A stretch of 64,000 nucleotides of DNA from the NCBI GenBank assembly GCA_965208905.1, contig OZ242365.1, forward strand, positions 1,440,001-1,504,000, written 5' to 3'. Source of the DNA: Nitrosopumilaceae archaeon. Its GTDB lineage: Archaea > Thermoproteota > Nitrososphaeria > Nitrososphaerales > Nitrosopumilaceae. Of the stretch, positions 15,264 to 54,043 are shown piece by piece. A program made the translations under genes and the position numbers. Position 1 is the stretch's first letter. Each line of letters starts with the position of its first letter. Below the pieces are notes generated by a model. The model searched no databases and was not told the origin of the DNA. It saw nothing but the letters and a program-made list of their open reading frames with translations.

Positions 15264-15450
15264 GGGAATTATATACAAAAGTACAGCAGTCTTAACCGCC
15301 TACTTTTCGTTGGCTTTCACCATTCAGGGTGCGTGTGTTTGGCATGCGCTTTGGAAGCGCGGTCTTGACTACCTGCCAGTCTCCTACAACCGGTGGTGGC
15401 GTGCGGTTGCGTAGGCTTATTCGGTCCCTCAAGTCCGTCCCGGACTTGAT
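15264..15450 (-). ncRNA. Putative omega-RNA scaffold overlapping tnpB-1 3' end
   Basis: Expected position for TnpB. Hairpin aaaagtaggcggt...actgctgtactttt followed by gtatataattccc. 5' limit is a guess. Confidence 0.55.
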
Positions 15451-16704
15451 GCATAAACGACTTGCCTTTTGGGCGCGTCTTGAGTTTGGTTTTATGTAAT
15501 CATAATTGTTGTTATAGTTGTTGTCTGGACTGTACATGATGTTGAATGCGCCGTTATAGTCGGCATGACATACAGTGCCGCAGTTCCGACACTTGAACTT
15601 TCTATCATGGTTCCACCTCTCATGTACAATTTCATTATTGTGCCAAATCTTGAATCCACCGTAGCGTTCGGTGTCCTTACTACAACATGCGCCACACCGT
15701 TTGGACGTATTGTAGGGTTTAACCTCTCTGATTTCCGTATTATGCTCAGGGGCTTTCTTTGTACACCAATCACGGACTTCACCGGCCTTACTCTCTTTTA
15801 GTGTGCGGTTCTTGCCTTTGGCGCAGTTGCCCCCCTTGCGGGTAAGATTCACCAAGTTGAGGTTCTCAAATTTTACCAAATCGCAGTCCACGCACAGTTC
15901 CTTGCAAAAGTGTCTGTACTTATTCAACTGCCAGTTGTATAGCGTTTTGCGCTGCCGTTTCATGCTGTCATTTATCTTATTCCATCTGTTGCTGTTATGT
16001 GTACATCTGTCACGTTCGGACTGGAGTTTTCTAATGTGCTTGCCTATTTCATCATTGTACAATTTAAGAAGGCGTGTAGTACCGTCCGACAGTGCCACAT
16101 ATGCTGTCAACTTGCCTATGTCAACACCCGCCGTCAACCCTGTTATCTTCCTGTCCGGGATGTACTTTTGTATTGTAAGGTGTAACTCAAACTGGCGGTG
16201 ACCGCGCCGTCTATCCGCATCACTCGTTATGTCAACAATCTTGTGTGACACTACGGTTTTGATGTTGGGTAGCCGCCCCTTCGTGATGCTGAACTGTGTG
16301 TCTGACTTGGGAAATGTGACCGTGTTGTGTTTGATTCGCTTTGGTGCACCAAGGAAGAATATCGGATATGTTTTACCGTCTTTGAGATGCGTACAGTCCT
16401 TCATTTCAATACCTGCCAGGATTGCACCGCGAATTAAGTGTAGTGGTGCGCATTCCTTGGGGTCGGTATTATCCCATTCTGCCATCATGCTTTTGGCAAC
16501 CGTAACGCATGTCAATGCGCTTCGGGGATACGGACTAGGACTACTGCTGGCAGTGAACTGCACGTTCAAGTTACGACACATAACACCTAGTTCAACCCAC
16601 ATACGGCTTTCGGCCTCCAGACTTTCAACATATGAGGTGATTATACTATTTGTCTTTAGGCGGTATTTGCGGGTTCTATAGATTATACTCTTCTTGGTCT
16701 GCAT
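15292..16704 (-). CDS. tnpB: TnpB-family RNA-guided endonuclease (copy 1)
   Basis: RuvC-I GVDIG, RuvC-II FENLNL, YNTSKRCGACC...FKCRNCG zinc finger, RuvC-III HADYNGAFNI. Confidence 0.9.
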   Translation of the reverse strand: MQTKKSIIYRTRKYRLKTNSIITSYVESLEAESRMWVELGVMCRNLNVQFTASSSPSPYPRSALTCVTVAKSMMAEWDNTDPKECAPLHLIRGAILAGIEMKDCTHLKDGKTYPIFFLGAPKRIKHNTVTFPKSDTQFSITKGRLPNIKTVVSHKIVDITSDADRRRGHRQFELHLTIQKYIPDRKITGLTAGVDIGKLTAYVALSDGTTRLLKLYNDEIGKHIRKLQSERDRCTHNSNRWNKINDSMKRQRKTLYNWQLNKYRHFCKELCVDCDLVKFENLNLVNLTRKGGNCAKGKNRTLKESKAGEVRDWCTKKAPEHNTEIREVKPYNTSKRCGACCSKDTERYGGFKIWHNNEIVHERWNHDRKFKCRNCGTVCHADYNGAFNIMYSPDNNYNNNYDYIKPNSRRAQKASRLCIKSGTDLRDRISLRNRTPPPVVGDWQVVKTALPKRMPNTRTLNGESQRKVGG

Positions 16705-16818
16705 ATCACATATTATGATATTTCAGATATAAAGTTACATACCTCATATTTACTATATGATATGTATAGTACAGTCCCGACCACATGCCAGTCTGTCAAA
16801 TTACGGCGCTGTTATACG

Positions 16819-16902
16819 GCATGCCAAACACACGCACCCTGAATGGCGAAAACCAACGAAAAATAGGCGGTTAAGCCTACTGTACTTTTGTAAGTAATTC
16901 CC
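16819..16902 (+). ncRNA. Stand-alone inverted copy of tnpB-1 3' end / omega-RNA scaffold
   Basis: About 84 bp near-identical to the reverse complement of 15264-15347, ending at the same taattccc boundary. Confidence 0.55.
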
Positions 16903-17120
16903 TATGTGGTCTGGCCAGCATATCGGCGAAATGAATAGAGAATTTGTATATTTATATGTGAGATTATGCCATTAGCATTATGAAGAAATTTAAGCATACA
17001 AATGATGAGTTGGAACAAGCAAGGCTTGAGGCCAAGGGCGGCGATGACCCCACTGTACGGCAAGGCCAAAAGAAGAGTAAATATGGCCAAAGTATAATAG
17101 AATTTTAACTTTTTTCATTA

Positions 17121-17393
17121 TTATTTAAATGGGTCCAGCTGAATGCGATCGTCTGGGTCTGCGCGGATACAGTCGGTACCAACAGGATGTAGTTTTACAA
17201 ATTTTATCACACCCTTTGGTATTTTGTTATGTAGTTGTAAGTATGTGACCTTTTTGGAGACATCATCTCTATGTGTAGCACATGTCACCCCCACCATGTA
17301 TTCATCATTATCACTTGTTACAGATACCACAAACTCGGGCGGGTTGGAGCACCGCCGCTTGTTATGTATGATGGCGCATCTATCGGGAAGCAT
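17121..17393 (-). CDS. Small Cys-rich hypothetical protein
   Basis: MLPDRC...CSNPPEFVVSV...EYMVGVTC..H; divergent from the oxidoreductase. Confidence 0.7.
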   Translation of the reverse strand: MLPDRCAIIHNKRRCSNPPEFVVSVTSDNDEYMVGVTCATHRDDVSKKVTYLQLHNKIPKGVIKFVKLHPVGTDCIRADPDDRIQLDPFK

Positions 17394-17438
17394 CTCACTA
17401 TTACACATAATACTACAAGATATATCAATATGCATTTG

Positions 17439-29300: not shown

Positions 29301-29338
29301 ACAATTTTCACCTATTTATGGCTCTTTTAAAGCCTTGC

Positions 29339-39249: not shown

Positions 39250-39645
39250 TCATGGTGCCCGGTATCCCATTTTCAACATCAGCTCGCCAACAGTCTTTGC
39301 AACGCGGGAACACATAGATTTTACTGAATTTGGGTCCAAATTGGACTCGTAGAAATTCCGATGTAGTGTGCTTGCGGATGAAAAGGAATTAGAAATTTCT
39401 TTGTTGTGTTCCTGTTTGGATAACATTTCGGCAAACGTTCCTAGTTCTCGATGGCTATTGATATCTTTCTTCTTTTTTGCAGCAACAGCTTTGAGGGCGC
39501 AGGACATAGTACCCCACATCATCTCGCTGGCTTTGTGGTAATCCTTTGACTTTAGATATTTTTCTGCATTATGGCTATAGTGCAAAACCATGCTTGCGTA
39601 CTTGTCCGCCGCGCTTTTCGCGGCATCAATTCGGGCAGACACCAT
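39250..39645 (-). CDS. PaREP1-family (HEPN-like) protein
   Basis: A..YL...DY.KASE..WG....LKA.A...SHREL...A..LH.NFYE. Confidence 0.85.
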   Translation of the reverse strand: MVSARIDAAKSAADKYASMVLHYSHNAEKYLKSKDYHKASEMMWGTMSCALKAVAAKKKKDINSHRELGTFAEMLSKQEHNKEISNSFSSASTLHRNFYESNLDPNSVKSMCSRVAKTVGELMLKMGYRAP

Positions 39646-39868
39646 TAATCATCCTCATCTATGTCATCCACATCTATGTTGGCATATCCGATAATCTTTC
39701 CAGAGCTTGCATTAACTTTTATCTCTTTTAGATGCTGGCTCAAAAAACCAACATCAAATACAAGATGCCACCATGCAGACTTGAGGACTCTAGATTCATT
39801 GTGTCGTGACGCCCCTCGAGAAATTCCTCTGCCTTTTGTATTGCGTCTTCCATGTCATACTCTGTCAT
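39645..39868 (-). pseudogene. Frameshifted PepSY-like small protein coupled to PaREP1
   Basis: MTEYDMEDAIQKAEEFL...SSL [frameshift] WWHLVFDVG...EIKVNASSGKIIGY...DEDD*; stop overlaps the PaREP1 start (TAATG). Confidence 0.55.
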
Positions 39869-40151
39869 AAGTTAAACCGTATGATCATGTGATAAATCCT
39901 TTGCGCAGATAGGTTACTTTGCAAGGGTGGGTGGAGAGTCAAGAAGATTGCCTCTACGATCTTAAATAGTCCATCTGATCAGGACAGGTATGGGACGCAG
40001 GAAACCCCGGAAAGGTAGGGCATCAGAGCAGTGTATAACGCGCCTGGGCTCTACATCTAGGTACTTTGGTCCAAGATATGTCGTTGTAGAGTGCACGTGA
40101 GCGCATACACCAAGTTCATAGTCTTGCCATCCAAGAGTATCATTTCATACA

Positions 40152-41252: not shown

Positions 41253-41452
41253 TATACGATACAGATTATACACCATACATAAGCGTTTGAGGAATAGTAT
41301 ACAGTTTGAGATTGTCAATGATTTTGTATCGTATGGGGCAAGTCAGGTTTGCTACACAGGTACACATCATTGGCATGTGTTAGTTGTAAGAGACTAGTAG
41401 AATTTCAAGTTGTATGTGCAAGGATTGATCAAGGTGCACGTAAGATACTTGG

Positions 41453-42496
41453 TGTATTATGTCGAAATTATTTCGCCTAGTCATCGGTGTCCCTCTCCAT
41501 CCATTCTAAGTCACTCTTCCTGACATCATCTGGTACTTTTTTGTTGTGAAATGCCTGTAGCGGGGTCTCGCCATTGTTTATGTCTAAAGACCAGTGCAGT
41601 CGCACCTCGTTGTAGTACGCGACAAACTCCGCTAGGCTGCCAAAATGACATAGTTCTTCTTCCAAGGTGCGGTGGAACCGTTCAAGCTTGCCGTTTGTTT
41701 GTGGGTGGTAGGGGCGGGTGTTGATCAACTCAATACCCCGGTCAAGCAGCTCTGCCTCAAATATAGTGGGGGTCCATGATTTTGCAGGAATCTTTCTTCT
41801 CACACCCACAAAGCACGATCCGTTGTCGGAGAGTATGGTGGCCGGGGTTCCAAACTCAACAATGCTATTTTGCAGGACTGTTACCGCGTTCTCGGATGTG
41901 GCCCCCTTGAATATCATGGCTCCAACCACACATCTTGACGCATCATCAAGATATGTGATTAATTGGTAGCCTTGAAAACGTGGATCTTTCATCGCATGCC
42001 AGTCCGTATGCCACATCGCATTGGAGTATCTGCGCTCATAGCGTATCCATTTACGCCTGCGCGATTTTGCTGCAGATAGAGTGACCATATTGTTTTCTTT
42101 CATGATTGTGTATACCGTTTTTTCACTTATTTGTATGCCCTTGTGATTTAAGTACTTGGTGATCCTTGTGACGCCTGCTGGCATTATACGATGTGCTGCT
42201 AGTACGACGTTGGTTTGCTCCTCGGTGGGAGGAATCTTGGGTCTGCCTGGCATTTGTAGTGTGGGAATCTTGCCCGTTGCACGATACATTGCCCAGAGTT
42301 GTTGTACGCGTCTCTGGCTAATCTTCATCTCTGTAGCAATGTGTGATGTACTACTACCTTTCCTGCATTGTCGAATGATATAATCTATCTGCTTCTGTGT
42401 CAGATTGACTCTCATGGGTTTGCGTGATCTATATAGACTAAAATATTCTTTGGTTGGCAGTCTAAAGTTAGGGCGAACTAATTTCCGCACAATAGA
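41453..42496 (-). mobile_element. IS481-family IS (copy A), 16-bp target duplication
   Basis: cacgtaagatacttgg at 41437-41452 and 42497-42512; imperfect 25-bp ends tgtattatgtcgaaattatttcgcc / tctattgtgcggaaattagttcgcc. Confidence 0.9.
41477..42460 (-). CDS. IS481-family transposase
   Basis: RYER...N.MWHTDW, DDASR, ILSDNG, RPYHPQTNGKLERFH, YNEVRLH.SL. Start uncertain. Confidence 0.93.
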   Translation of the reverse strand: MPTKEYFSLYRSRKPMRVNLTQKQIDYIIRQCRKGSSTSHIATEMKISQRRVQQLWAMYRATGKIPTLQMPGRPKIPPTEEQTNVVLAAHRIMPAGVTRITKYLNHKGIQISEKTVYTIMKENNMVTLSAAKSRRRKWIRYERRYSNAMWHTDWHAMKDPRFQGYQLITYLDDASRCVVGAMIFKGATSENAVTVLQNSIVEFGTPATILSDNGSCFVGVRRKIPAKSWTPTIFEAELLDRGIELINTRPYHPQTNGKLERFHRTLEEELCHFGSLAEFVAYYNEVRLHWSLDINNGETPLQAFHNKKVPDDVRKSDLEWMERDTDD

Positions 42497-42613
42497 CACG
42501 TAAGATACTTGGGCATACGCTCACACCAACTTTATGATATGTAATATATGCAAGTAGAATACCTGCGAATAACCACATAGTTAGTGTTATATGGGATTTA
42601 ATTGCCCGGCAAA

Positions 42614-42988
42614 ATGGTGAGCAGTGCAAAATTGCTAAGGATGGTAGAAGAGATAATAGCTCTTGATACAAACATGCGTTTTGCTGCAATCATAGATTTG
42701 AAGGGAAACATACGTGAGGCCATCATGAAGTCTGGTAAAACCAGCCTAAAGTCCCAGAGAGAAGAAGAGCATTTTTGCAAGCAGGTTGCGCAACGCCGAC
42801 AGATGAGAAAGGATTTTGATTCAAGTCTAGGCAAGGTACGATATGTACACGTTGAACGTGAAAAGGTCTCCCAGATGGTAGTGTATACTCCCAAAAACAC
42901 CATATACTTTACAATGGAGCCCGAGCTAGCTGTAGAGGAAAAGATCAAACTGATAACAAAGATAAAGACAATGGTCAGTGCCTTATAG
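42614..42988 (+). CDS. Small roadblock/profilin-like hypothetical protein
   Basis: I.ALD.NMRFAAIID.KG...R.DFD..LGKVRY..VEREKV pattern familiar from thaumarchaeal paralogue families. Confidence 0.75.
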   Translation: MVSSAKLLRMVEEIIALDTNMRFAAIIDLKGNIREAIMKSGKTSLKSQREEEHFCKQVAQRRQMRKDFDSSLGKVRYVHVEREKVSQMVVYTPKNTIYFTMEPELAVEEKIKLITKIKTMVSAL

Positions 42989-43099
42989 AACCAAGGTGCT
43001 TTATTCAATTAAGGCAAAAAATATGGCAATTTGTGTGTGGGCCAGAAAATACATAGGCATGATACATCTATAATATTTGGCACCATTCAAGAATCTGCT

Positions 43100-43428
43100 A
43101 ACTCAAAGATGGCTATGTATAATCGGTTGACTCTGACAGAATAATTTTAGCGAGTTTTTTATTTGTGTCGTCAGAAGCTAATCTGGCAAGGAGGACAAAG
43201 ATTCATACTTTGAGCCCAAGAAAAACTACACCGGTAAGGGGATCAGCATCTGGAGTAGGATAGCCAGATTGTGAAAAAGAGCATCTAGGCCGATTATACA
43301 AAGTCTACAAAGCCCGTACCACGATAGAGGTTCTTGTGGTACGGCGGCAACAAACCAACGCTGTATAGGCCGCTATACAAGGCGCCAAGAAAAGACACAA
43401 GTAATGTTTACTTATGTATATAATTCCC
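43100..43428 (+). pseudogene. Decayed tnpB 3' end with retained omega-RNA-like hairpins
   Basis: TGKGISIWSRI and TNQRC echo tnpB-2 AGEGIALERRE and ENQAC. Stems at 43314-43344 and 43362-43379. Ends tatataattccc. Confidence 0.6.
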
Positions 43429-43451
43429 TAATGTATGGATAGACATGTGTA

Positions 43452-44201
43452 ATGCCCATACGACTAGCCCAGATACATGAGTGGAACAAGGTACAAGACT
43501 TTTGTACCAATACATTTCAGTGGGGCGATTACATTGAAGATGTATGGGACTCGTGGGTAAAGTCAAAGAGTCTGCTAGTATACGAGGATAACGACACAAT
43601 TTTAGGAATATGTAACGTTGTCACACATAACACCGAAGCTTGGATAGAGGGTCTACGTGTAGATGTAGCGGCGCGTCGTCGCCACATAGGTAAATCACTG
43701 CTACGCGCCGCCGAAGAGGCCGCCATACAGCAGGGCGCCACATACAGTAGGTCCGCCATCGAAAGTAGCAATATGCCATCACTGCAGATGTGCTATATGG
43801 CTGGATACAAAACAGAGCAAAAGTGGTACATGTATAGATGCGATGCGCAACCACATGCTACATACGGTATAATCAAACCTGTACCAAAACATATGCAACC
43901 GAACAGATACGTCAATTCGTGGATTTGGGTAAATACTAACAATATATCGCCAGATCATATATTACATATGCCAGATGGGCCTGTCTTTGTACTGTCCGAC
44001 TCAGATAGGTTCCCAAACACACTCATGGTCACCATATACAACAATGCCAAACATGATATCAATGATACAATACACTACATATCCAACCTTGCATACAACA
44101 AAAACCAATCCATACAGATATTCTCCACTGATATAATACGCCACAAAGCATTACATGACCACAACTCTACAATAACGGTAGTTCTAAAGCAGATTTCGTA
44201 A
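43452..44201 (+). CDS. GNAT-family acetyltransferase
   Basis: WGDYI..VWD.W, AWIEGLRV....RRRHIG..L, N.PS. Confidence 0.88.
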   Translation: MPIRLAQIHEWNKVQDFCTNTFQWGDYIEDVWDSWVKSKSLLVYEDNDTILGICNVVTHNTEAWIEGLRVDVAARRRHIGKSLLRAAEEAAIQQGATYSRSAIESSNMPSLQMCYMAGYKTEQKWYMYRCDAQPHATYGIIKPVPKHMQPNRYVNSWIWVNTNNISPDHILHMPDGPVFVLSDSDRFPNTLMVTIYNNAKHDINDTIHYISNLAYNKNQSIQIFSTDIIRHKALHDHNSTITVVLKQIS

Positions 44202-44236
44202 AAACGGTTTTACAATAGCTATTTAGATACATATAT

Positions 44237-46078
44237 GTGTCCACCGAACAGGCCAAAGCCGCCGAATACATACAAAGAAAATCTGTCACAACCTGCATGA
44301 AGCGCAATGTACTGCAGATGAGTAAAGATACATCCACACGAGTGGCAGCAGACAGACTTCGAGAACACGAGCTGGACGAAATTCTTGTGGTCGAAGATGA
44401 AAAATGTATAGGCATAGTTACCGACAAGGACATTCTAAGCAAGGTCAGTGATGTCAATGTGGATGCCGAAAGTACCACACTCGAAGACATAATGGTCACG
44501 CCTGTGATATCCATACGCAAAAAGGAGAATCTGCACAAGGCATTAGAGATAATGAAAGATACACACCACAACAAGCTTCCAGTAACAGACAGGCGCGGAC
44601 GGGCACTAGGCATAATACACCGGCGCGAGATATTAGACAGGGTCCAGTGGGCGGCAAGTCAGGCCACGCCAAGATTGATGAGTCCACCCGCCAAGGCCAT
44701 ACTGGGAAATTTGGGATTTGTACTGCAGTTTGCTGGCGTTCTACTACTGTTACCAGCACTAGTATCAACATTCATGGGCGATACGGTTACTGCAACAGGA
44801 ATATACCTAAGCTTGGTACTTCTCTTGGTGGTGGGGTTCTTTTTGAACTCGTACGGGGAGAAGGCCAGAATGAATATGCGTCAGGCCTCTGTAGTTGTAC
44901 TGTCCAGTCTGTTTATGCTATCACTGTTTGGAACCATACCGTATCTATATCTGCCATCAGATATACAGCTAAACGGCACAGATGAGATAACCGTAGATAC
45001 CTTTGCTAGTGCATTCTTCTCTAGCGCGGCCGGGTTTACCACCGGTGGCATATCCCTATACGACACACCCGAAGACCTACCTCAAAGTTTTACGTTTTAT
45101 AGAAGTTATACTCAGATGATTGGCGGCATGAGTTTCATATATTTGGTCATTACCGCGTTTTATCCCAACAGCAAGCTAGCAAGCATGCGCAGCTTTATCA
45201 CCGGCAAGGGCTTGCACATGCGAGAACTATTTGGAACTATTACAATAATATTCACACTGTATGTCACGGTTATCGCACTACTACTATACCTGATGGGCGA
45301 TGACAACATAATAGACGACTTTTCATTGGCCATGAGTACATTGGCCACTGGTGGTTTTGTGCCGCACTCTGAGATTGTTCAAAACATGGAGTGGCCCAAA
45401 CAGATGGTGCTTATGAGCGCCATGATTCTGGGAACGTTGCCCTTTGCCTTACACTATGGGATGGTGAGCAAGAGGGGCAGATTGCCAGTTATTGGCCGGG
45501 AGGTATCTGTATACTTTGCAATGCTTGCTATTGCCATTATCATATTTGCATGGGTTGGCGGTACAGACATACTGAATAGCGCATTTTATGCCATATCTGC
45601 TAGTACGACTGCAGGCGTTCAACCATCCTCACTGGCAGATTTGGCCATACCAGGGCAGTACATACTGATAGTTCTTATGCTGATAGGTGGGTGCGGCTTC
45701 TCCACTGCCGGCGGCATCAAGATGTTTAGACTATTCTATTTGGTTAATGCGTTCAAGATGATACTCCCCAAGAGTCGCAGTAAAGTCAGCGCCGAGTCCC
45801 GACGGGACATACGGGCTGCCCTTATAGTGATTTCAGCATTCCCGATTATAGCTTTTTTGTGTGGTGCATATCTTGTAGAGTTTGAGGGTGCCGACCCTGA
45901 CTTGGCATTCTTTGATGCTGTGGGAATCATTACTACAGGCGGACTGTCCACAGGTGTAATAGACTTTGAGACATCTGCGCACACCAAAATTTTATTATCC
46001 ATGTTGATGATATTTGGTCGTCTAGAGATAATAGCTCTGGTATATGTAATAGCGCCTCGTATAATAGGTAGGAATTAA
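44237..46078 (+). CDS. trkH: CBS-domain-fused TrkH-type potassium uptake protein
   Basis: N-terminal CBS pair, then pore motifs GFTTGG, LATGGF, STTAG, ITTGG and GRLEI. Confidence 0.9.
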   Translation: MSTEQAKAAEYIQRKSVTTCMKRNVLQMSKDTSTRVAADRLREHELDEILVVEDEKCIGIVTDKDILSKVSDVNVDAESTTLEDIMVTPVISIRKKENLHKALEIMKDTHHNKLPVTDRRGRALGIIHRREILDRVQWAASQATPRLMSPPAKAILGNLGFVLQFAGVLLLLPALVSTFMGDTVTATGIYLSLVLLLVVGFFLNSYGEKARMNMRQASVVVLSSLFMLSLFGTIPYLYLPSDIQLNGTDEITVDTFASAFFSSAAGFTTGGISLYDTPEDLPQSFTFYRSYTQMIGGMSFIYLVITAFYPNSKLASMRSFITGKGLHMRELFGTITIIFTLYVTVIALLLYLMGDDNIIDDFSLAMSTLATGGFVPHSEIVQNMEWPKQMVLMSAMILGTLPFALHYGMVSKRGRLPVIGREVSVYFAMLAIAIIIFAWVGGTDILNSAFYAISASTTAGVQPSSLADLAIPGQYILIVLMLIGGCGFSTAGGIKMFRLFYLVNAFKMILPKSRSKVSAESRRDIRAALIVISAFPIIAFLCGAYLVEFEGADPDLAFFDAVGIITTGGLSTGVIDFETSAHTKILLSMLMIFGRLEIIALVYVIAPRIIGRN

Positions 46079-46099
46079 TCTAGCATATTACATCTAAAT

Positions 46100-46888
46100 A
46101 TGATGTATAGCGCACGACGGGGGCGCATGTTGGTCATAACCGGCATAATACTGATTGCCGTCCTGTTTGTATGGTATTATAGGTATCAGGATCCGGAATC
46201 CTTGACGCCTCAGGCCATATCTACAATACATTGGCTGGCACAGATGTTCTATGTCTTACTGGTGGCATGTTTTGGTATGATATCTTGGGGTCTGTACATG
46301 TATCATCGTGCCAACATATCTGGTGACGGTCTATTATCTGTCATATCCACACATATAGACAATAAAAGGTCACAGACAGTATTTGTTATTGTTATAGTTA
46401 CGTATGGTGTATTCTTTTCACTGGTATCGGGCACGCTGGTATATCAGCCTACAGTAAACTTTGTAGAACATTATGGTGTGCAAGTACCATCGATACTGGT
46501 ATCGCCCTGTTGTGGGGATATGGGATATATGCCCACCATACTTGTGTATATAACCGAACATGTGGGGCTACAGATAATACCGCTAAATTTGGTACTACAG
46601 GCTACTGTCTCGTATTTGGTGGCGCTAAATGTAGCACTGGCCGTATCGGCATATACGGCATCCCGCAAGGCCAAAGGTGCCGGGATGGTGGGGGCCGTCA
46701 CGGGTCTGTTTGTAGCATGCCCCACATGTGTGGGAACACTCTCATCTGTATTCATAGGAACTGCCAGCGGCATTGCGCTCTCTGCCACGCTGTCGTATCT
46801 GCAGACAGCTTTTATTGCAGTATCCATACCGGTACTGCTGATTACTCCGTTTGTACTGGTCCGTCAAATCAGGCGATGTCGAATCTGA
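46100..46888 (+). CDS. Membrane protein with CC and CxxC motifs
   Basis: Several TM helices, PCCG..GYMP, ACPTC. Confidence 0.75.
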   Translation: MMYSARRGRMLVITGIILIAVLFVWYYRYQDPESLTPQAISTIHWLAQMFYVLLVACFGMISWGLYMYHRANISGDGLLSVISTHIDNKRSQTVFVIVIVTYGVFFSLVSGTLVYQPTVNFVEHYGVQVPSILVSPCCGDMGYMPTILVYITEHVGLQIIPLNLVLQATVSYLVALNVALAVSAYTASRKAKGAGMVGAVTGLFVACPTCVGTLSSVFIGTASGIALSATLSYLQTAFIAVSIPVLLITPFVLVRQIRRCRI

Positions 46889-47118
46889 GGCGTAGTGTTA
46901 TTGCCAATGTCGTATCCTTCCTGTTTTAGGTATTTCATGGCTAGTTTGTACACTACAGCATCATGTTCGGATATAGCTAGCGCATCGTTCCATGATATGT
47001 GGCCGTCTTTATCTATCTGTGATTTTATTTTGGGCAGTATGGAGCGGGCAATCTTGCGACAGTCATCAAATGTTCTGCCATCTTTGTAGGCGGTAACTCG
47101 TATATCACATTGCTCCAT
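46864..47118 (-). CDS. Small hypothetical protein
   Basis: ATG start with TATA-like sequence upstream; soluble-protein composition. Confidence 0.65.
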   Translation of the reverse strand: MEQCDIRVTAYKDGRTFDDCRKIARSILPKIKSQIDKDGHISWNDALAISEHDAVVYKLAMKYLKQEGYDIGNNTTPQIRHRLI

Positions 47119-47432
47119 ATGGATAATCTTCTTTTATATCATATATGAAGATTAGTAGTAAGGTTTTGGAAATTATCTCTAGAATGTATACTGCCTGTCA
47201 AAATAAAGTCAATTATGCATGGGAATACTGAACCGACTGTATGTGTGGAAATTTCGTATTTTGTTTGCGTACCAGAATTACCATTGTGTCATATGTCAAT
47301 TGATGAGTGTAGTGCTTTTCACACATTAAATGATCAGTTTAGATAAGTGTATAATATTTCAGTTACATTCAGGCTATAGCTGTTATACATAACGCGCAAC
47401 ATAAATATTAAAAAATTGAAAAAAATGGACTA

Positions 47433-49085
47433 TTATTTAATGTCACAACCCGCGTTGGGTACACTGTTATAGTCAAGCTGAATTATAAGCGAGGTACCAG
47501 GGAATGTTCCGCTAATCTTTACATCATGACCACTGACTGTCAGAGGCAGAGTCTTGGGACTGTTATCATCCTCTGTTAGTTCCCAGTCATCGCCAAACGT
47601 GTACGTCACATCTGCGGTATCATCATTGTTTCCGTCTAGTATGGTCAAACCTAAAGTACCAAAGTTTGCTAGGTTGTCATCATCACCACTTGCTCCGATT
47701 ATATCGGTTATCGTCAATGGGTTTCCACCACAGTCTAGGGTGTCCTCGTACGTCTTTAGTATGCCATCACCAGATATGCTTGCACCAAATGTCCTGCTGT
47801 ATGGTGTGTCTGCACCTACGGCACTTGCTGCACCACCAATACTGATTGAACACGTAGTATCACTATATGCATTCCAGTTTACCATTACTGTGTATAACTC
47901 GATCTCTTCGTTCTCATCAGTCCTTGGGTTGTCCTTTGTAGCATTAAGAATTAAGGCATCTCTAGTAGTAGCGTCAGTAATATCAGTACCGAAGTTAGCA
48001 CCAGCAGGGTTAGTATGAAGCTTACCAAAGGTGGCTCCTGTAGTGTTACCAAACGTACCATCATACAGTCTGGTCTCAAACTGTAGACCCATGCCAGCTG
48101 TAAGTTTTCTATTATCAAATGTCTCAGGTCTGTCATATTCAACATAATTATCAATATCACTGCCGTCACCAATCACAAAGTTGTTGTTGTATAATGTTCT
48201 GCCATCTACAGTTATGTAGTTTATTTGAGAATATCCACGTAGTGTATTGGCACCAGTAGCATCATCAGAAATACTTGCGGAGAACTCTCGAGACAGATAC
48301 TGTACGTTACCAGCAGTACTGGCATCATCAGTAGCAGTTCGGATACTAGGATTGGAATGTATCATATCTGCCGTATCCAAGAATACATCACTACTACATG
48401 TGAATGCCATGTCTAGTTCATAACGATCAAAGCCAGATACGGTAGTCTTCTTGCCGTGTTGCTTGTAATCATAGTTGGTTATAGTTTTGGTTGTCGTGCC
48501 CTCAAAGAATCCAGATATGGTCTGTGTTGTCTGTGAGCTGCTAGTGGTATTTCTGATAACGCCTAACTCTGCACTTATGGCCTCAAGTTGATCATTTATT
48601 GTCGCCATGTTCAGTGCAATGCCAGCCACCCTTTCAGATAGTATCTGCAGGGATGTGCTGTCAACGCTACTACTCTGACCACTCACTATGCTAGTCTCAA
48701 TAGCCATCAGTCTATCCTCTATGCTGGTTATCTTGTTGTTTATCGCACCAATACTTGCTGCAACAGCATCAAATCCAGTTATTGATGATTTGATTTGAGT
48801 TACATCAGTAGAAATGGTAGCAACGCTACTCTTTACTTCATCAACAGAAGAACCCACAGATGTCAGTGTTGACTCAATGCCAGATATACTGGCAGATAGG
48901 GCCTCTACAGCATCAGACAGGCTAGATACCATATCATTTATGGCATCAACTACAGTCATTATAGCAGAAGTATTATCATCTATTTTTTCAATACGTTGTG
49001 TATTTGATTGTGCATATGCGTCTATTGTCATGGCTCCTGTTACCACTAATAGTGACAACAAGAGTGCATGTATTTTTATTTCCAT
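47433..49085 (-). CDS. Secreted/surface protein: signal peptide, coiled-coil stalk, acidic beta-rich C-terminal region (complete copy)
   Basis: MEIKIHALLLSLLVVTGAMTIDAYA signal, S/T/I heptad stalk, D/T/G-rich C-terminal region. Confidence 0.85.
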   Translation of the reverse strand: MEIKIHALLLSLLVVTGAMTIDAYAQSNTQRIEKIDDNTSAIMTVVDAINDMVSSLSDAVEALSASISGIESTLTSVGSSVDEVKSSVATISTDVTQIKSSITGFDAVAASIGAINNKITSIEDRLMAIETSIVSGQSSSVDSTSLQILSERVAGIALNMATINDQLEAISAELGVIRNTTSSSQTTQTISGFFEGTTTKTITNYDYKQHGKKTTVSGFDRYELDMAFTCSSDVFLDTADMIHSNPSIRTATDDASTAGNVQYLSREFSASISDDATGANTLRGYSQINYITVDGRTLYNNNFVIGDGSDIDNYVEYDRPETFDNRKLTAGMGLQFETRLYDGTFGNTTGATFGKLHTNPAGANFGTDITDATTRDALILNATKDNPRTDENEEIELYTVMVNWNAYSDTTCSISIGGAASAVGADTPYSRTFGASISGDGILKTYEDTLDCGGNPLTITDIIGASGDDDNLANFGTLGLTILDGNNDDTADVTYTFGDDWELTEDDNSPKTLPLTVSGHDVKISGTFPGTSLIIQLDYNSVPNAGCDIK

Positions 49086-49131
49086 TACAGTGACTTTGAT
49101 TATTAGTATTTAAGGGCAAAGTACAATTTAT

Positions 49132-49599
49132 TTAACCACAGCTCAATATTTTATTACCATTCTCATCCATTATACCATCCCGTATTTTAGTAGTAGATAT
49201 GCGAGTGCCGTCTGAACCAGATACCATGGGCACTATTACAACATCCACGGCAGCTAATCCGCGCCTAGTACGCATATCATTTAATACATCACCCATGTGG
49301 GCGGTCTCCTCACTACACACCAAGACATGCACAGATGGTTCCAGTACGGAAGGGCCAAAATCATCATCCAGACGTGATATAACATATGTAGCAGTGGGGA
49401 ACTTGTCCCGTATAAAGCAGGTCAAATTATGTAGCCGTGTGTCATAGTTATTTACAACATGCTTGTCTCGCCGTATAACAAACTCATCACTACACAGGCC
49501 GATTATGGTACTATCATACTGTAACGCCACCGAAAGTAATGCCTCGTGGCCTTTGTGTATAATATCAAATGTACCACCAGTAGCAGCTATAAAAGACAT
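49132..49599 (-). CDS. coaD: Phosphopantetheine adenylyltransferase, archaeal type
   Basis: GGTFDIIHKGH..LL, D.FGP, SEET, N..R..RGL, RISTT.IR.G. Confidence 0.92.
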   Translation of the reverse strand: MSFIAATGGTFDIIHKGHEALLSVALQYDSTIIGLCSDEFVIRRDKHVVNNYDTRLHNLTCFIRDKFPTATYVISRLDDDFGPSVLEPSVHVLVCSEETAHMGDVLNDMRTRRGLAAVDVVIVPMVSGSDGTRISTTKIRDGIMDENGNKILSCG

Positions 49600-49603
49600 G
49601 TAA

Positions 49604-50626
49604 TCATTCCACAGTAAATAGTACGATAGGGCCGGGTACGGATATGGGCGTATTCAGATTGTTTCGTAGAAACACCTCCATTATATAATCTCCCACATAT
49701 GATGGGCTCCAGGGTACGGATATCTCGGTAATAGGTAATTGTACCTGCGTGCTCTCTGAGAATACAATTGCTGAACCAACCTTTGGTTTTATCTGTAGAT
49801 ATAACCAGTGAGTATTATTAGCATCTAGATGTAGACCGGTGCCCAGAGTTACGTTTTGATATACATCCAACAATACAGTACGCGTATCATTATCGTCTTT
49901 GATCCACACATCTGTAATATAAGATGCCAAATCTGGGGGAGAAGCAACATTAAAGATTCGTTTCTGTACGCTCATAGAACTAAAGACATCTGACTCGGCA
50001 TATATGGCAACACTTCTAGCATTATATGGTATGTTTCCATATACGTTGGTAAATAATGTGCCATCCATTCCCATATCCCCTAAAACATGCGTGTCAGTGC
50101 GCAACACCCGAGGAGGCTCAAAGACATCCCTGTACGTCACATGTATGGTAACGTTGCTGTGGGGGGAGTGGGCCACATCCGATATGGTTACATTTCCAGT
50201 TACAGGGTTCATATCAATATGTATGCCCAATGGCTTTGGGTTCGCCTGCTCAAACATCAATATACTTGGTATGGCATCTGCAATACGAATGCCCGGTTCC
50301 GGCGACTGTACAGAGAATGGGGATGATGATTTTGGAGGTATTACTTGTAGTGATGGTGATGATATTACACGGTATAGTGGCGTGTTACTTGTATCATCAT
50401 AGAACTTTACTAGTAATACTACATTTCCCACGTATGATAACTCAGACTCATTGTATATCATACCGGTTACTATGGTGTAACCATTTACATCCGTATACTG
50501 GTATGTGGGGCTTGCCATCTGAACCACCAATGTACTTGGCGTGTCATATGTCTGCGCATGTATCGATACAGGCACCAACAATATCATGGACAAAAGTACA
50601 CCGCACAAAATACATGACACTCGCAT
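49604..50626 (-). CDS. Secreted Ig-like (FxLYD-like) domain protein
   Basis: Signal peptide, GMIYN...V.L.VKFYD...IPP..SSPF, C-terminal W.P...GDY..EVF. Confidence 0.7.
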   Translation of the reverse strand: MRVSCILCGVLLSMILLVPVSIHAQTYDTPSTLVVQMASPTYQYTDVNGYTIVTGMIYNESELSYVGNVVLLVKFYDDTSNTPLYRVISSPSLQVIPPKSSSPFSVQSPEPGIRIADAIPSILMFEQANPKPLGIHIDMNPVTGNVTISDVAHSPHSNVTIHVTYRDVFEPPRVLRTDTHVLGDMGMDGTLFTNVYGNIPYNARSVAIYAESDVFSSMSVQKRIFNVASPPDLASYITDVWIKDDNDTRTVLLDVYQNVTLGTGLHLDANNTHWLYLQIKPKVGSAIVFSESTQVQLPITEISVPWSPSYVGDYIMEVFLRNNLNTPISVPGPIVLFTVE

Positions 50627-50928
50627 GTCATTATATGTGACGCAATTCAATAATATAGTTATTGGCCAATATGCCTCTTGGGTATCCATGATGACGTAGG
50701 CGGAGATATCATGAAGCCGGAGTTGTTATGGCAATTCTGGGCGCAGTAACAGATCCTCTTGTAGATACGTGGGGAGTCGCTCAGGCGGCGTACCATTCCA
50801 GCGGGAAGCACCCACGCCACCTGGCGTATCCATCTGGTAGAACCAGATCTGATCTCCCTCCGAACTGGCATATATCTGCAGACCCGACCGCTTTGAAACC
50901 TAAAAAGTCCCTAGTTGGGGTCAGAACC

Positions 50929-52152
50929 CTGCAGATACTATCTGAAAGGGTGGCTGGCATTGCACTGAACATGGCGACAATAAATGATCAACTTGAGGCC
51001 ATAAGTGCAGAGTTAGGCGTTATCAGAAATACCACTAGCAGTTCACAGACAACACAGACTGCAACTGGATTCTTTGAGGGCACTACAGAGAAAACTATCA
51101 CCAACTATGATTACAAGCAACACGGCAAGAAGACTTCCGTATCTGGCTTTGATCGTTATGAACTAGACATGACATTCTCATGTAGTAGTGATGTATTCTT
51201 GGATACGGCAGATATGATACATTCCAATCCTAGTATCCGAACTGCTACTGATGATGCCAGTACTGCTGGTAACGTACAGTATCTGTCTCGACAGTTCTCC
51301 GCAAGTATTTCTGATGATGCTACTGGTGCCAATACACTACGTGGATATTCTCAAATAAACTACATAACTGTAGATGGCAGAACATTATACAACAACAACT
51401 TTGTGATTGGTGACGGCAGTGATATTGATAATTATGTTGAATATGACAGACCTGAGACATTTGATAATAGAAAACTTACAGCTGGTGCTGGACTAAAGTT
51501 TGAAACTAGACTATATGATGGTGAGTTTGGCAACACTACAGGAGCCACCTTTGGTAAGCTTCATACTAACCCTGCTGGTGCTATTTTCGGTACTGCGATT
51601 CCGAGTGCAGATCCTAGTGAATATGAGTACTTAATTAAAAATGCTACAAAGGACAACCCAAAGACTCCTACGAACGAAGAGATTGAACTATACACAGTAA
51701 CGGTAAACTGGAGTTCATTTAATGCTGCTACATGTTCAATCAGTATTGGCGGTGCAGCAAGTGCCGTAGGTGCAGACACACCATACAGCAGGACATTTGG
51801 CGCAAGCATATCTGGTGATGGCATACTAAAGACGTACGAGGACACCCTAGACTGTGGCGGAAATCCATTTACGATAACCGATATAATCGGTGCAAGTGGT
51901 GATGATGACAACCTAGCAAACTTTGGTACTTTAGGTTTGACCATACTAGACGGAAACAATGATGATACCGCAGATGTTGCGTACACGTTTGGCGATGACT
52001 GGGAACTAACAGAGGATGATAACAGTCCCAAGACTCTGCCTCTGACAGTCAGTGGTCATGATGTAAAGATTAGCGGAACATTCCCAGGAAGCTCGCTTAT
52101 AATTCAGCTTGATTATAACAGCGTACCCAACGCGGGTTGTACGATTAAATAA
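50929..52152 (+). pseudogene. 5'-truncated (possibly silent) variant of the 47433-49085 surface-protein gene
   Basis: Frame intact from LQILSERVAG to stop, but signal peptide and most of the stalk are missing; upstream 50728-50926 is unrelated sequence. Confidence 0.75.
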
Positions 52153-52159
52153 TAGTCCA

Positions 52160-52175
52160 TTTTTTTCAATTTTTT
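52160..52175 (+). terminator. T-tract terminator
   Basis: tttttttcaatttttt just after the stop; mirrored at ~47410-47426 for the other copy. Confidence 0.6.
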
Positions 52176-52635
52176 AATATTTATGCTGCGCATTATAACA
52201 GCGTGTATAAGCTTCTGTACAGGTTATAGAAATAGTTCATCCCCCAACATCATGAGAGTTATCGATATGAAAACCATGTTAGGTTGTTACACTGTATTAC
52301 GTTGATGGTATTTCTTTCTAAGATATGTGATAAAACATATTGTATAATATTACACGATCTTTATAGCACGCCGATTGGAAAAGTCAAAAATTTGTTTCCT
52401 GTACTATATAATATGGCATATGCCAAATTGTTACAACAGGTCCGTAGTTCCGAAAAGTCAGGACGCGTTGCATGCAGATTAGGCATGTTGCTAGTGTTAC
52501 TCAATATGAAGAGTGTCTTTACAACAACGGTCATCACGCCTAGGCGATTTTCAATTGTGTAGGAACTTTTGCGTGCCGCCATAGAGGCATATCTACTGAA
52601 TTTAATTATATACAATTCACACATAACATATACGA

Positions 52636-53781
52636 ATGTCATATTTTGTTGCGGTAGCCGTCCTGTGTATGGGGTTTGGTGTTTGGAGTGCGTATGGTGA
52701 GTTAAGCCTAGAGCCGGTACTGACTGATCTGGATACTCCCTGGGATGTGGCGTTTGGTGATGAATGGATGTATGTGACCACCCGGCCCGGTATACTGTAT
52801 GGCGTACATGAGGGAGAGGTCACACCACTGTTGCATATGCGTGTGAGTGGTGGTGAGGGAGGAATGCTAGGAGTTGCCACACATGAGGGAATGATATATG
52901 TGTATTATACTGATATAAACAATGGAAATCGTGTGTCTCGATATACGCATACTGAAGATGGTCTCAAGCACGACATAGATATCATACAGGACATACCATC
53001 TGCGGCAATTCACAATGGCGGCCGCATACGGTTTGGCCCAGACGCGATGCTTTATGTGACTACCGGAGATGCTGGGAATCCCAACCACTCACAGGATGTA
53101 AACTCATTGGCTGGCAAGATACTTCGACTCAATCCTGATGGAACCATACCTGCCGACAATCCTGTACCGGGAAGTCCCGTATATGCATATGGTCTGCGCA
53201 ATCCACAGGGAATAACATGGGATGCCAACAACACAATGTATGTTACGGATCATGGTCCTTCGGGACTCTTTGAGAATGCGCATGATGAAATAAACCAAAT
53301 AATACCGTATGGTAACTACGGCTGGCCGGATTCTGTAGGTGACCGCGTTACGTCTGGAACAATAGCCCCTCTGATACACTCAGGTGCGGTAACCTGGGCG
53401 CCGTCTGGCTTGGAGTTTATCAACGGTTCTGGTATATTGGAGTGGGAGGGGATGCTGCTGTATGGTGCCCTGCGCGGAGCGCATTTGGGCACAGTAAATA
53501 TAGATGGTTCTGGCCACGCCACATATCTAGATGGTGAGATTGGTCGGATACGTGCCCCCATACAGCATCCCAACGGAACCGTATACGTGATAACCAGCAA
53601 TACTGATGGGCGCGGGTTGCCTTATGAGGATCACGACATGCTGTTGCGCGTGACCCGTGACATGTCTATACCCGACAAATACGAATACCTAGCCGATATT
53701 CTGTGGAGTATGTACCGTGATGGACACCTGACCGTGCAACAACTGCATGTGGCACTCGGGTATGTATCTTCGCTCAGTTAG
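52636..53781 (+). CDS. PQQ-dependent glucose/sorbosone dehydrogenase-family protein
   Basis: GEGGMLG, HNGGRIRFGPD..LYVTTGD, AGKILR, YGLRNPQG, NYGWP, APSG. Confidence 0.93.
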   Translation: MSYFVAVAVLCMGFGVWSAYGELSLEPVLTDLDTPWDVAFGDEWMYVTTRPGILYGVHEGEVTPLLHMRVSGGEGGMLGVATHEGMIYVYYTDINNGNRVSRYTHTEDGLKHDIDIIQDIPSAAIHNGGRIRFGPDAMLYVTTGDAGNPNHSQDVNSLAGKILRLNPDGTIPADNPVPGSPVYAYGLRNPQGITWDANNTMYVTDHGPSGLFENAHDEINQIIPYGNYGWPDSVGDRVTSGTIAPLIHSGAVTWAPSGLEFINGSGILEWEGMLLYGALRGAHLGTVNIDGSGHATYLDGEIGRIRAPIQHPNGTVYVITSNTDGRGLPYEDHDMLLRVTRDMSIPDKYEYLADILWSMYRDGHLTVQQLHVALGYVSSLS

Positions 53782-53789
53782 GTATAGCG

Positions 53790-54006
53790 GATACGTTCGA
53801 TAAGGGAATTGTACCAGGGTATTCCACGCAGATGTAAACGCTGCGTCCAACATCCTGTATCGGGCGGCGGGGAACGTCGTCCTAAGACGGCCGGGGCATA
53901 AAGAGGGCTACAAACCAACACCCGCCATGCTCCGTTCCATACAACAGGGCCGTCAGAAAATGAATGAGTGTACAGCCAAGGCTGTGTACTTTTCTATATA
54001 ATTCCC
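53790..54006 (+). pseudogene. tnpB 3' remnant with omega-RNA-like end
   Basis: NCTRVFHADVNAASNILYR (zinc finger end plus RuvC-III), hairpin agtgtacagcc-aa-ggctgtgtact, ends ctatataattccc. Confidence 0.8.
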
Positions 54007-54043
54007 AAAAGAGCCATATAGTCAGAGTATTGAGGTTATAACA

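Follow-up and report, generated by a model that had tools for sequence, protein, structure and literature searches.

We found that the five divergent ends dispersed between positions 15264 and 54030 of an archaeal DNA are the tips of tnpB-carrying elements that move like ordinary cut-and-paste insertion sequences. The window, that is, the whole stretch analysed, comprises 64,000 nt of the forward strand of contig OZ242365.1 (assembly GCA_965208905.1; positions 1,440,001–1,504,000) from a Nitrosopumilaceae archaeon (Thermoproteota; Nitrososphaeria; Nitrososphaerales), whose genome is 99.57% complete. Taken together, the results make it probable that these are tnpB elements of IS1595 type with an omega-RNA scaffold at the right end and a TAM outside the left end, and that the ends at 43428 and 54006 are right-end remnants of them.

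An earlier note on this DNA had described the five ends as a single omega-RNA-like set, each end stopping at TAATTCCC, preceded by a hairpin and followed by a different flank. These observations were confirmed: TAATTCCC is present at all five ends (15264–15271 on the minus strand; 16895–16902, 30769–30776, 43421–43428 and 53999–54006 on the plus strand), the quoted hairpin arms all lie just inside the ends, and the flanks are distinct at 5/5 ends. The window holds six copies of TAATTCCC versus 1.88 expected (at least six in 1 of 100 shuffles), and the genome 153 exact copies. TAATTCCC also terminates the opposite (left) ends, as an inverted repeat; it is a motif of transposase ends, on both ends of an element, rather than the RNA-end feature it had been taken for. 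Nor do the five ends form one omega-RNA-like set, as a covariance model of the A/F type has no match at 15264, 16902 or 30776. The features of the window are as follows.

5821–5828, plus strand: sixth TAATTCCC, within a coding region; a chance occurrence outside the set, without hairpin, preceding TATA or repeat match.
15264–16902, minus strand: complete tnpB-only element of family E, 1639 bp, with 84-bp terminal inverted repeats; holds two of the five ends.
15264–15347, minus strand: right end of family E, with hairpin (15307–15277) and inverted-repeat tip; putative 3′ part of the omega RNA.
15307–15301 and 15283–15277, minus strand: hairpin arms aaaagta/tactttt.
15292–16704, minus strand: tnpB, 470 aa; PF07282, E = 1.3e-14; PF01385, E = 9e-05, 23.1 bits, below the 30.5-bit cut-off.
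16819–16902, plus strand: left end of family E, 84 nt, 91.7% identical to 15264–15347 inverted; upstream of the tnpB start codon (16704).
29339–30776, plus strand: complete tnpB-only element of family B2, 1438 bp; left tip GGGGCTTATCC, right tip GGATAATTCCC.
29434–30762, plus strand: tnpB, 442 aa; PF07282 (E = 2.5e-18) and PF12323 above cut-offs; PF01385, E = 2.1e-06, 28.4 bits, below 30.5 bits.
30731–30776, plus strand: right-end hairpin (30731–30757) and tip of family B2.
30731–30739 and 30749–30757, plus strand: hairpin arms gaatgtacg/cgtatgttc.
43317–43428, plus strand: right-end remnant of family F, without tnpB; hairpin 43396–43418.
43396–43405 and 43409–43418, plus strand: hairpin arms acacaagtaa/ttacttatgt.
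53802–54006, plus strand: gene-less right-end remnant of a family A element, its final ~200 nt with the tnpB RuvC-III codons; hairpin 53967–53990.
53967–53977 and 53980–53990, plus strand: hairpin arms agtgtacagcc/ggctgtgtact.

The ends at 15264 and 16902 belong to one element, where they pair as an inverted repeat (21/24 at the tip; 91.7% over 84 nt). The end at 16902 had been regarded as an orphan variant of the one at 15264; the similarity holds, but the sequence at 16902 forms the left inverted repeat of the element that ends at 15264 and is, thus, not an orphan. Accordingly, of the three ends said to lack an intact tnpB, only 43428 and 54006 do so. The stop codon of tnpB is 28 nt away from the tip at 15264. 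A second, identical copy of the element is found at genome positions 2049469–2051107, and the differing flanks of the two copies begin exactly at both tips. No target duplication is present around 15264–16902, which counts against the explanation that we favour. In the sister genome G005 the flanks of this element are 547 kb apart, suggesting recombination between copies.

The family B2 element, in turn, is flanked by an 8-bp duplication, AGCCTTGC (29331–29338 and 30777–30784), and G005 contains its exact empty site, uninterrupted and with a single AGCCTTGC. The search for empty alleles, proposed earlier, thus succeeded for this element; at the 43428 and 54006 sites G005 has other nucleotides. 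In the 442-aa TnpB, alignment to solved Cas12f matches GIDRG, VEQLHLE and NADGNASVNI to its RuvC motifs and zinc finger, and in the 470-aa protein alignment to solved TnpB places GVDIG, FENLN and HADYNGAFNI at the RuvC positions. By alignment, both TnpB proteins of the window have the TnpB domain make-up, the RuvC D-E-D motifs and the zinc finger, and are predicted nucleases.

TAATTCCC forms the tip of a terminal inverted repeat, GGGAATTATA...TATAATTCCC. This repeat delimits three kinds of element in the genome: those with tnpB only, mini-elements without a gene, and four autonomous DDE insertion sequences of the IS1595 family. Among 104 inverted end pairs at most 4 kb apart, 27 show an 8-bp duplication (23 of them perfect; 0 at four shifted offsets), namely 18 tnpB elements, 4 IS1595 copies and 5 short gene-less elements. 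The mini-elements with two ends comprise those of 45–450 bp with duplications and a 641-bp deletion derivative. The repeat is 13–24 nt long (84 nt in the 15264–16902 element); the 24-nt repeats of family A are identical at 24/24 positions in 7 of 13 pairs with a duplication, and at 21–23 in the remainder. The first 12–13 nt (GGGAATTATATAC) are common to the IS1595 copies and families A, B and F; family E has two deviating positions and the left tip of B2 a larger number, and all make 8-bp duplications. Every tnpB family with resolved ends in this genome, which has 75 PF07282 matches, sits on inverted-repeat elements making 8-bp duplications.

Eight base pairs is the usual duplication of the IS1595 family, some members of which carry passenger genes; we know of no described member with a tnpB passenger. 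The four autonomous copies, all located outside the window, have inverted repeats and 8-bp duplications and encode transposases of 316–320 aa with DDE_Tnp_IS1595 (PF12762, E = 2e-40) and a zinc ribbon. Two of these copies carry cargo, a methyltransferase–HNH gene. Across related genomes, IS1595 is present in 11/11 genomes with at least 8 TnpB matches versus 1/20 others; as they represent 3 genera only, these genomes are not independent. In one relative (G001), tnpB (441 aa) and an IS1595 transposase gene (320 aa) lie together in a 2562-bp unit that has the same tips and is marked by the duplication CCGGTATC. In a second species (G006), 14 of 20 tnpB loci had their ends resolved, and 14/14 of these show the same tips and 8-bp duplications. 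Since most elements carry tnpB alone, with ends matching those of IS1595, the IS1595 transposase most likely mobilises them in trans, as judged from the ends they share, from co-occurrence and from the composite unit of G001. A point against the explanation that we favour is that we found no cognate transposase for the remaining tnpB-bearing inverted-repeat types (GGTTCC... and GGNNCTGTCAA...).

At 43428 and 54006, only the right end of an element is left, and both sites have undergone rearrangement since. The 43428 remnant scores 89.5 bits with the covariance model (E = 1.4e-18), the sequence itself being in the training set; family F has five other partial copies and 0 full-length copies in the genome. 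In related strains X12 and X13, 96 other letters replace 43028–43430, and in G005, 1659 other nt. The 54006 remnant is 83–89% identical to the final 200 nt of 16 family A elements, and the ORF adjoining it (52636–53781) encodes a glucose/sorbosone dehydrogenase instead of TnpB. In X12 and X13, contigs connect 53801 directly to 54007, and G005 has 291 unrelated nt at this site.

According to the earlier note, the RNA-coding right ends outlive their genes and provide scattered guides usable by intact TnpB in trans; we weighed this model with the host or the remnants as beneficiary. The first part of it is supported genome-wide, where gene-less right-end pieces are commoner than left-end ones (3 vs 0 in family A; 5 family F ends without a full-length copy), although the counts are small and the better conserved 3′ block is favoured in detection. 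The note had named 5′ fragments of tnpB as frequent as 3′ ones as evidence against it; right-end pieces outnumber left-end pieces, so the fragment count does not speak in that direction. Also in agreement, 9 of the 25 modules detected in the genome by the A/F covariance model have no adjoining tnpB, both remnants retain the whole conserved block of ~105–125 nt, and trans use of gene-less omega-RNA derivatives has been proposed for IS605 (PMC10055086). However, 16902 is no orphan, family F has no cognate tnpB in the genome, and in our reading of the alignment the predicted stem GGTTC/GCGCC is weaker in the 43428 copy than in the 1954k copy. Furthermore, no orphan flank matches a second target in the host genome beyond chance, and at the 54006 remnant the genome differs from G005 by an indel, for which an ordinary deletion suffices. 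We thus consider scattered guides used in this way unlikely, and regard the two pieces as remnants of IS1595-type elements.

The right-end block (the last ~125 nt plus the inverted repeat) is most likely an omega-RNA scaffold gene. RNA folds of the final 60 nt gave a hairpin 12–20 nt from the tip in the tnpB-proximal ends of every family, and no consistent hairpin at left ends or IS1595 ends. As the earlier note held, the presumed RNA end overlaps the 3′ end of tnpB: the gene ends 5–42 nt from the transposon end, and the family A stop codon is the TAA within TAATTCCC. Fold z-scores of single sequences are mostly weak (−0.5 to −2.6); only family B gives strong ones (−5.1, −6.6). Of the cells in the family A alignment, 97.5% are paired versus 96.4% in shuffled alignments (0/500 reach the observed value), the structure being derived from the same sequences; slid controls gave 39–53%. 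Covariation is modest, with 6 pairs showing double changes versus 2.5 in shuffles (1/500), and the C-G to G-C swap of pair 160/191 goes with a change in the inverted repeat. Many of the changes preserve G-U pairing, and do so for the tnpB strand alone. In family A, the terminal block loses codon-position bias (variable columns at positions 1/2/3 are 13/11/19 vs 7/1/11 upstream); its overall conservation is not above that of the upstream coding part (43/115 vs 19/77 variable columns). There was no Rfam match at gathering scores, and the RNA-library contigs touching 53859–53893 derive from other copies. The right-end-specific hairpin, the conserved foldable block and the variable flanks adjoining it are as expected of an omega-RNA gene.

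In families A, E, D and C, the sequence immediately beyond the left duplication carries a one-sided motif whose placement follows the direction of tnpB. The base 5′ of the left duplication is G in 14/16 family A elements (binomial, 8e-8) versus 4/16 at the mirror position (Fisher, 0.001), and likewise in 3/3 family E and 4/5 A-like elements of G006; family D has TT at −3 and −2 in 7/8. The motif is weak in family B (A in 5/8), and the 444-aa family of G006 has none except a pyrimidine in 6/7. The motif just outside the left duplication fits a candidate TAM.

It is conceivable, yet improbable, that the right-end block is not a guide RNA at all, that is, a terminator or stabiliser of tnpB mRNA or a site for the transposase or a host factor, and that the flank motif reflects target choice by the transposase. 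TTTT directly follows the hairpin in families A and E, the inverted repeat and the 3′ hairpin arm overlap, which makes a role at the DNA level conceivable, and IS1595 copies and short elements likewise favour A/T-rich 8-mers. However, families B and F have no T run, and left ends are mobile with the same repeat and no hairpin. Given the near-identical repeats of family A, a symmetric transposase complex should give a mirrored preference, whereas the G at −1 is one-sided. The block also resembles omega and Fanzor RNAs that overlap the gene 3′ end and the terminal repeat (PMC10691335; PMC10530073). A scaffold gene at the right end and a TAM outside the left duplication remain the better account.

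Copies of tnpB are generally annotated as IS200/IS605-type, and ordinary IS200/IS605 (IS1341-type) elements moved by a Y1 TnpA that recognises the hairpins as DNA would share the tnpB-only organisation and hairpins near an end, but we rejected this membership as very improbable, given the inverted repeats at both ends, the 8-bp duplications, the hairpin at one end only, several stems that depend on G-T pairs (weak in DNA) and the absence of a Y1 (HUH) TnpA, with 0 Y1_Tnp (PF01797) and 0 resolvase matches in a profile search of this 99.57% complete genome and Y1_Tnp above cut-off in 0/31 related genomes.

For the IS1595-type elements we propose the following mechanism. The omega-RNA scaffold would end at the transposon tip and read on into the flank. 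In consequence, the guide would consist of the 8-bp duplication and then host DNA, and match the uninterrupted site. The short motif outside the left duplication, fixed relative to the direction of tnpB, would serve as the TAM, and TnpB may cut empty alleles while sparing occupied ones. More tentatively, and with less than even confidence, we suggest that this archaeal genus has refitted TnpB homing to target-duplicating cut-and-paste transposons, with the TAM outside the left duplication. Only insertions in the correct orientation beside a TAM would then be retained, which would give a one-sided flank motif despite near-identical 24-nt repeats on both ends, and right-end remnants with scaffold and flank guide could use TnpB in trans for their own retention.

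TnpB is understood mainly through IS605 and IS607 elements, which excise scar-free and so restore an empty site for the nuclease to recognise. In the argument of a 2026 review, which lists ISL2, IS630 and IS1031 as partners of TnpB, this logic accounts for the rarity of DDE pairing in prokaryotes (PMC13565253). The genome studied here and its relatives show the opposite on a large scale, with dozens of tnpB copies per genome and every family with resolved ends on duplicating elements; they provide a natural example of TnpB on transposons of a type in which it was considered rare. They also offer a concrete predicted geometry (TAM, then duplication, then flank) and, for biochemistry, several compact archaeal TnpB proteins paired with putative scaffolds and predicted TAMs.

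DDE-linked TnpB is already known as a kind, and the idea of use in trans is already published for IS605 (PMC10055086). In DDE-associated branches tnpB lies within inverted-repeat elements, its 3′ end at most 250 bp from the transposon end, and solo copies with ends near-identical to those of transposase-bearing elements imply mobilisation in trans (Altae-Tran et al. 2023, PNAS, PMC10691335). Our elements share these inverted repeats, the tnpB near the end and the solo copies with the ends of transposase elements; unlike the DDE cases in the main text of that study, all resolved tnpB families here are on 8-bp-duplicating elements, with no Y1 or serine TnpA. The only DDE partner named in that main text is IS630; IS1595 is named neither there nor in the review (PMC13565253), and an IS1595 branch may stand in the supplements of PMC10691335. 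A literature search for TnpB and IS1595 returned no relevant paper, as judged on titles and abstract starts. Like PATEs, gene-less IS605 derivatives (Meers et al. 2023, PMC10055086), the 43428 and 54006 pieces keep an RNA-coding end without the nuclease gene; PATEs, however, have both hairpin ends, a Y1 TnpA and no duplications, whereas our pieces are one-ended inverted-repeat remnants. The elements also resemble eukaryotic TIR/TSD transposons with Fanzor1, a TnpB-type nuclease in cut-and-paste, target-duplicating elements, whose RNA overlaps the right terminal inverted repeat and whose TAM sometimes agrees with the insertion site (PMC10530073). Unlike Fanzor1, the proteins described here are archaeal, compact (440–470 aa) and intron-free, with the putative RNA region within the ORF and not far downstream, and the elements that carry them are a natural prokaryotic counterpart of the Fanzor-bearing transposons of eukaryotes.

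We confirmed the 8-mer TAATTCCC at all five positions, 15264(-), 16902(+), 30776(+), 43428(+) and 54006(+), at which the earlier note had omega-RNA-like ends stop, and found every hairpin arm quoted there. The window (1440001-1504000 of a single 2.21-Mb contig; G+C 45.6%) has six matches to TAATTCCC against 1.88 expected, a number reached in 1 of 100 shuffles. The SSU rRNA matched the archaeal model over its full length (1444 bits). No Rfam family matched in the window at gathering scores, and a tRNA scan of the window returned no genes, which argues against tRNA-linked integration. Besides the five ends, the window contains:

5821, a sixth TAATTCCC, unrelated to the five ends
15292-16704, minus strand, intact tnpB, 470 aa
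29434-30762, plus strand, intact tnpB, 442 aa

In the whole genome, exact TAATTCCC occurs 153 times, and many of these occurrences are inverted pairs that bound segments of 1.4-2.8 kb. Pairing left- and right-facing tips at most 4 kb apart, with at least 14 of 24 repeat bases matching, gave 104 inverted end pairs. An 8-bp direct repeat (at most one mismatch; perfect in 23) was found directly outside the tips of 27 of them, and in no pair when the 8-mers were moved outward by 8, 16, 24 or 32 nt as a control. The 27 duplication-flanked pairs comprise 18 tnpB elements, four longer elements and five short gene-less ones (45-450 bp). The longer elements (2131, 2131, 2690 and 2837 bp) encode proteins of 316-320 aa that match DDE_Tnp_IS1595 (E 2e-40) and the IS1595 zinc ribbon. 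Their first 12-13 nt (GGGAATTATATAC) are common to the IS1595 copies and to tnpB families A, B and F (element types are lettered A to G); family E differs from GGGAATTATATAC at two positions, and the left tip of type B2 at more. We read the five ends as tips of IS1595-type transposons that carry tnpB. Two of the four longer elements (genome 1043578-1046414 and 1770047-1772736) also have a methyltransferase-HNH gene as cargo, the DNA methyltransferase being fused or next to the HNH nuclease.

The TnpB TNB domain gave 75 matches in the genome (74 over the cut-off). Neither a Y1 transposase nor a resolvase was found in it, and membership of these elements in IS200/IS605 was rejected. Among 31 related genomes, Y1 was over the cut-off in none, TnpB in 16 and IS1595 in 12. 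IS1595 was present in all 11 genomes with at least eight TnpB matches versus 1 of the other 20, a co-occurrence to be taken as a lead without statistical weight, because the 11 genomes span only three genera. The two genes also occur in cis: in the related genome G001, a 2562-bp unit with tips GGGAATTATA and ATAATTCCC and the duplication CCGGTATC holds both a family-B-like tnpB (441 aa; PF07282, PF01385) and an IS1595 transposase (320 aa; PF12762, E 1e-35). This unit also has an additional internal tip, which would allow the transposase part to move by itself. In the related genome G006, 7 of 20 tnpB loci pass the repeat-plus-duplication script; seven more, of one 444-aa family whose borders were set by comparing copies, have the same tips and 8-bp duplications (four perfect, three with one mismatch), the remaining six lying outside the count. 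Family A has 16 gene-bearing copies in the window's genome versus no match (at E 1e-20) in the sister genome G005, which is ~97-99% identical in the flanks compared. This points to a recent gain or expansion, although the copies differ by up to ~20%, which is at odds with recent gain.

Different inverted repeats (GGTTCCTCCCGC..., GGNNCTGTCAAATC..., TGGGCTGTGACG...) bound other tnpB families of the genome, likewise with 8-bp duplications. No transposase for these repeat types was found in the genome, nor was any repeat-plus-duplication pair found around the weaker IS1595-like genes or the 13 IS6-type genes. The repeats of family C elements (genome 768095-769464 and 1379633-1381002) begin GG(A/C/T)(A/G)CTGTCAAATC and resemble IS6/IS26-type ends; no ends in common with them were found for the 13 IS6-type DDE genes of the genome. 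A further tnpB-like family (517-527 aa), missed by tblastn with the two window TnpB proteins, occupies ~1615-bp elements at genome 92955-94569 and nine similar places; it has 8-bp duplications and shares a GGTTCC... inverted repeat with family D. Two rve-type transposase genes lie in the window. One (331 aa, 55553-56548) is ~130 nt from a solitary GGTTCCTCCCGC-type tip at 56677, a type that elsewhere, as an inverted repeat, bounds tnpB families D and G. The other encodes a 340-aa integrase-core DDE protein on a 1061-bp insertion (41445-42505), which in the window's genome lies between copies of a 16-nt direct repeat, CACGTAAGATACTTGG. Two related strains, X12 and X13, lack the insertion: in their contigs, 41444 is separated from 42506 only by GG.

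We then considered the five ends individually. The end at 16902(+), previously counted as an orphan, is not one: it and 15264(-) are the two tips of a single 1639-bp family E element, with 84-nt terminal repeats that are 91.7% identical. An identical second copy is present at genome 2049469-2051107, with flanks that differ starting exactly at both tips. Both copies lack a duplication. Since one 8-mer (TAATTTCC) is common crosswise between the copies, and the flanks of the window copy are 547 kb apart in G005, we read these flanks as the outcome of recombination between copies. The end at 30776(+) is the right (tnpB-proximal) tip of a 1438-bp B2 element that starts at 29339 and has AGCCTTGC on each side; G005 has the uninterrupted site, with a single AGCCTTGC and flanks ~97-99% identical.

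The end at 54006(+), next to an ORF for a glucose/sorbosone dehydrogenase, closes a ~200-nt piece with 83-89% identity to the terminal 200 nt in 16 family A elements. Contigs of X12 and X13 join 53801 to 54007. A clean empty site, or a 205-nt piece inserting by itself, was dropped as an account, because G005 holds 291 unrelated nt there, which have no match in the window's genome. The junction letters at the remnant are AAGGG, and GGG precedes AATTGTACC in no full-length copy. Thus 54006 is what remains of a right end, located at an indel; probably an element inserted there, and a later deletion removed its left part along with some host DNA. The end at 43428(+) closes a ~110-nt piece of family F, of which the genome has five more partial copies but none of full length. 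The intergenic spot around it (43028-43430) differs in all three relatives: 403 nt here, 96 other letters in each of X12 and X13, and in G005 1659 nt, which include a 91-aa ORF and a stretch that recurs elsewhere in the window's genome. In two metatranscriptomes (X1 and X2), searched as contigs only and on 34101-54100, depth was very low: 0.79 and 0.06 at 42772-43438, and 1.04 and 2.62 at 53444-54100, where the contigs continue into other family A copies.

The earlier note proposed that gene-less right ends form a scattered guide repertoire, loaded in trans by intact TnpB. Gene-less derivatives are described by Meers et al. (PMC10055086) as often encoding omega RNAs that TnpB of other elements would have to use in trans. 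The remnants in the window retain the conserved block, and, as that note anticipated, right-end pieces are commoner than left-end ones:

Isolated end pieces by family
Family A: 3 right-end, 0 left-end
Family B: 1 right-end, 1 left-end
Family D: ~6 right-end, 1 left-end
Family F: right ends only

These counts, however, are low, and the 3' block is more readily detected; the 54006 remnant, moreover, is accounted for by deletion. The orphan flanks had only chance-level near matches in the host genome and, with one exception in family F, no second target. We regard a trans-acting repertoire as improbable, and 43428 and 54006 as right ends left behind at sites that were later rearranged. The exceptional right end (genome 1612204-1612343) borders on an inverted 27-nt fragment of a B2 left end, and its would-be guide has 2 mismatches in 20 to B2 left ends, including window 29346-29365; a nested insertion is the likely explanation. 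A tandem array of ~238-nt period (genome 476150-477210) also came to light, solely through near matches to one word of a flank.

The right-end block probably encodes an omega-RNA scaffold. The tnpB ORF of family A and of the 1420-bp B type extends to the TAA inside TAATTCCC; that of other families falls short by 11-55 nt. When the last 60 nt were folded, all tnpB-proximal ends had a hairpin 12-20 nt from the tip; left ends and IS1595 ends showed none that was consistent. RNAalifold on 20 family A right ends predicted 53 pairs, forming the terminal hairpin and longer-range helices over the last ~125 nt. Paired cells made up 97.5% versus 96.4% in shuffles (reached in 0 of 500), and both-side changes occurred at 6 pairs versus 2.5 (1 of 500); slid versions of the structure gave 39-53% pairing, although a structure derived from the tested sequences beats its slid versions for that reason alone. 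Because the structure came from the sequences on which it was tested, these comparisons lend modest support to the RNA reading. More telling are four other features. Pair 160/191 changes from C-G to G-C in three family A copies, in which the inverted repeat has changed as well; G-C and G-U interchange without a break in 27 cells; the G-U pairs are possible on the tnpB strand only; and variable columns at codon positions 1/2/3 number 7/1/11 in the upstream coding part and 13/11/19 in the terminal block, where the codon pattern is lost, suggesting that protein-level constraint fades there. Families A and F have loop motifs in common on different stems, and a covariance model of their ends found 25 modules in the genome, 16 adjoining tnpB and 9 not. 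It matched no B or E end, so the five ends do not make up one RNA family; a single alignment of all five was poor (mean column identity 55%) and was discarded.

With elements oriented by tnpB, the base just outside the left duplication was read, and a TAM-like motif appeared on one side:

Bases outside the left duplication
Family A: G in 14/16 (binomial 8e-8; 4e-6 after correction for 48 tests), consensus T-N-A-T-N-G; mirror position, G in 4/16 (Fisher 0.001 versus left side)
Family E: G in 3/3
A-like elements in G006: G in 4/5; mirror position, 0/5
Family D: T at -3 and -2 in 7/8, G at -1 in 5/8; nothing on the other side
Family C: G at -2 in 5/6
Family B: weak, A in 5/8

The 24-nt repeats at the two ends of family A elements are identical or nearly so (24/24 in 7 of 13 pairs with a duplication), so an orientation relative to a one-sided motif is not expected from a symmetric transposase complex, whereas selection through TnpB would produce it. 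The empty site would read motif, 8-mer, right flank, the order required by a guide taken from the right flank. At the occupied site the transposon tip would precede the guide match in place of the motif, and the left copy would offer a guide match of 8 nt only.

DDE-linked TnpB with inverted repeats has been described before; in the part of that work consulted (PMC10691335), tnpB ends at most 250 bp from the transposon end and solo copies are moved in trans. The section consulted of a 2026 review (PMC13565253) describes DDE-TnpB cases as rare in prokaryotes, naming ISL2, IS630 and IS1031. The portions consulted of these two sources do not name IS1595, which their supplements may list; search listings gave no relevant publication on TnpB and IS1595 together, and IS1595 does not occur in a survey of thaumarchaeal mobile elements (PMC6563490). 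What is new relative to these cases is the IS1595 link of tnpB, and the scale, in that every tnpB family with resolved ends in this genome rides duplication-making vehicles. To these we add a proposed geometry, in which the TAM is followed by the duplication and then by the flank.
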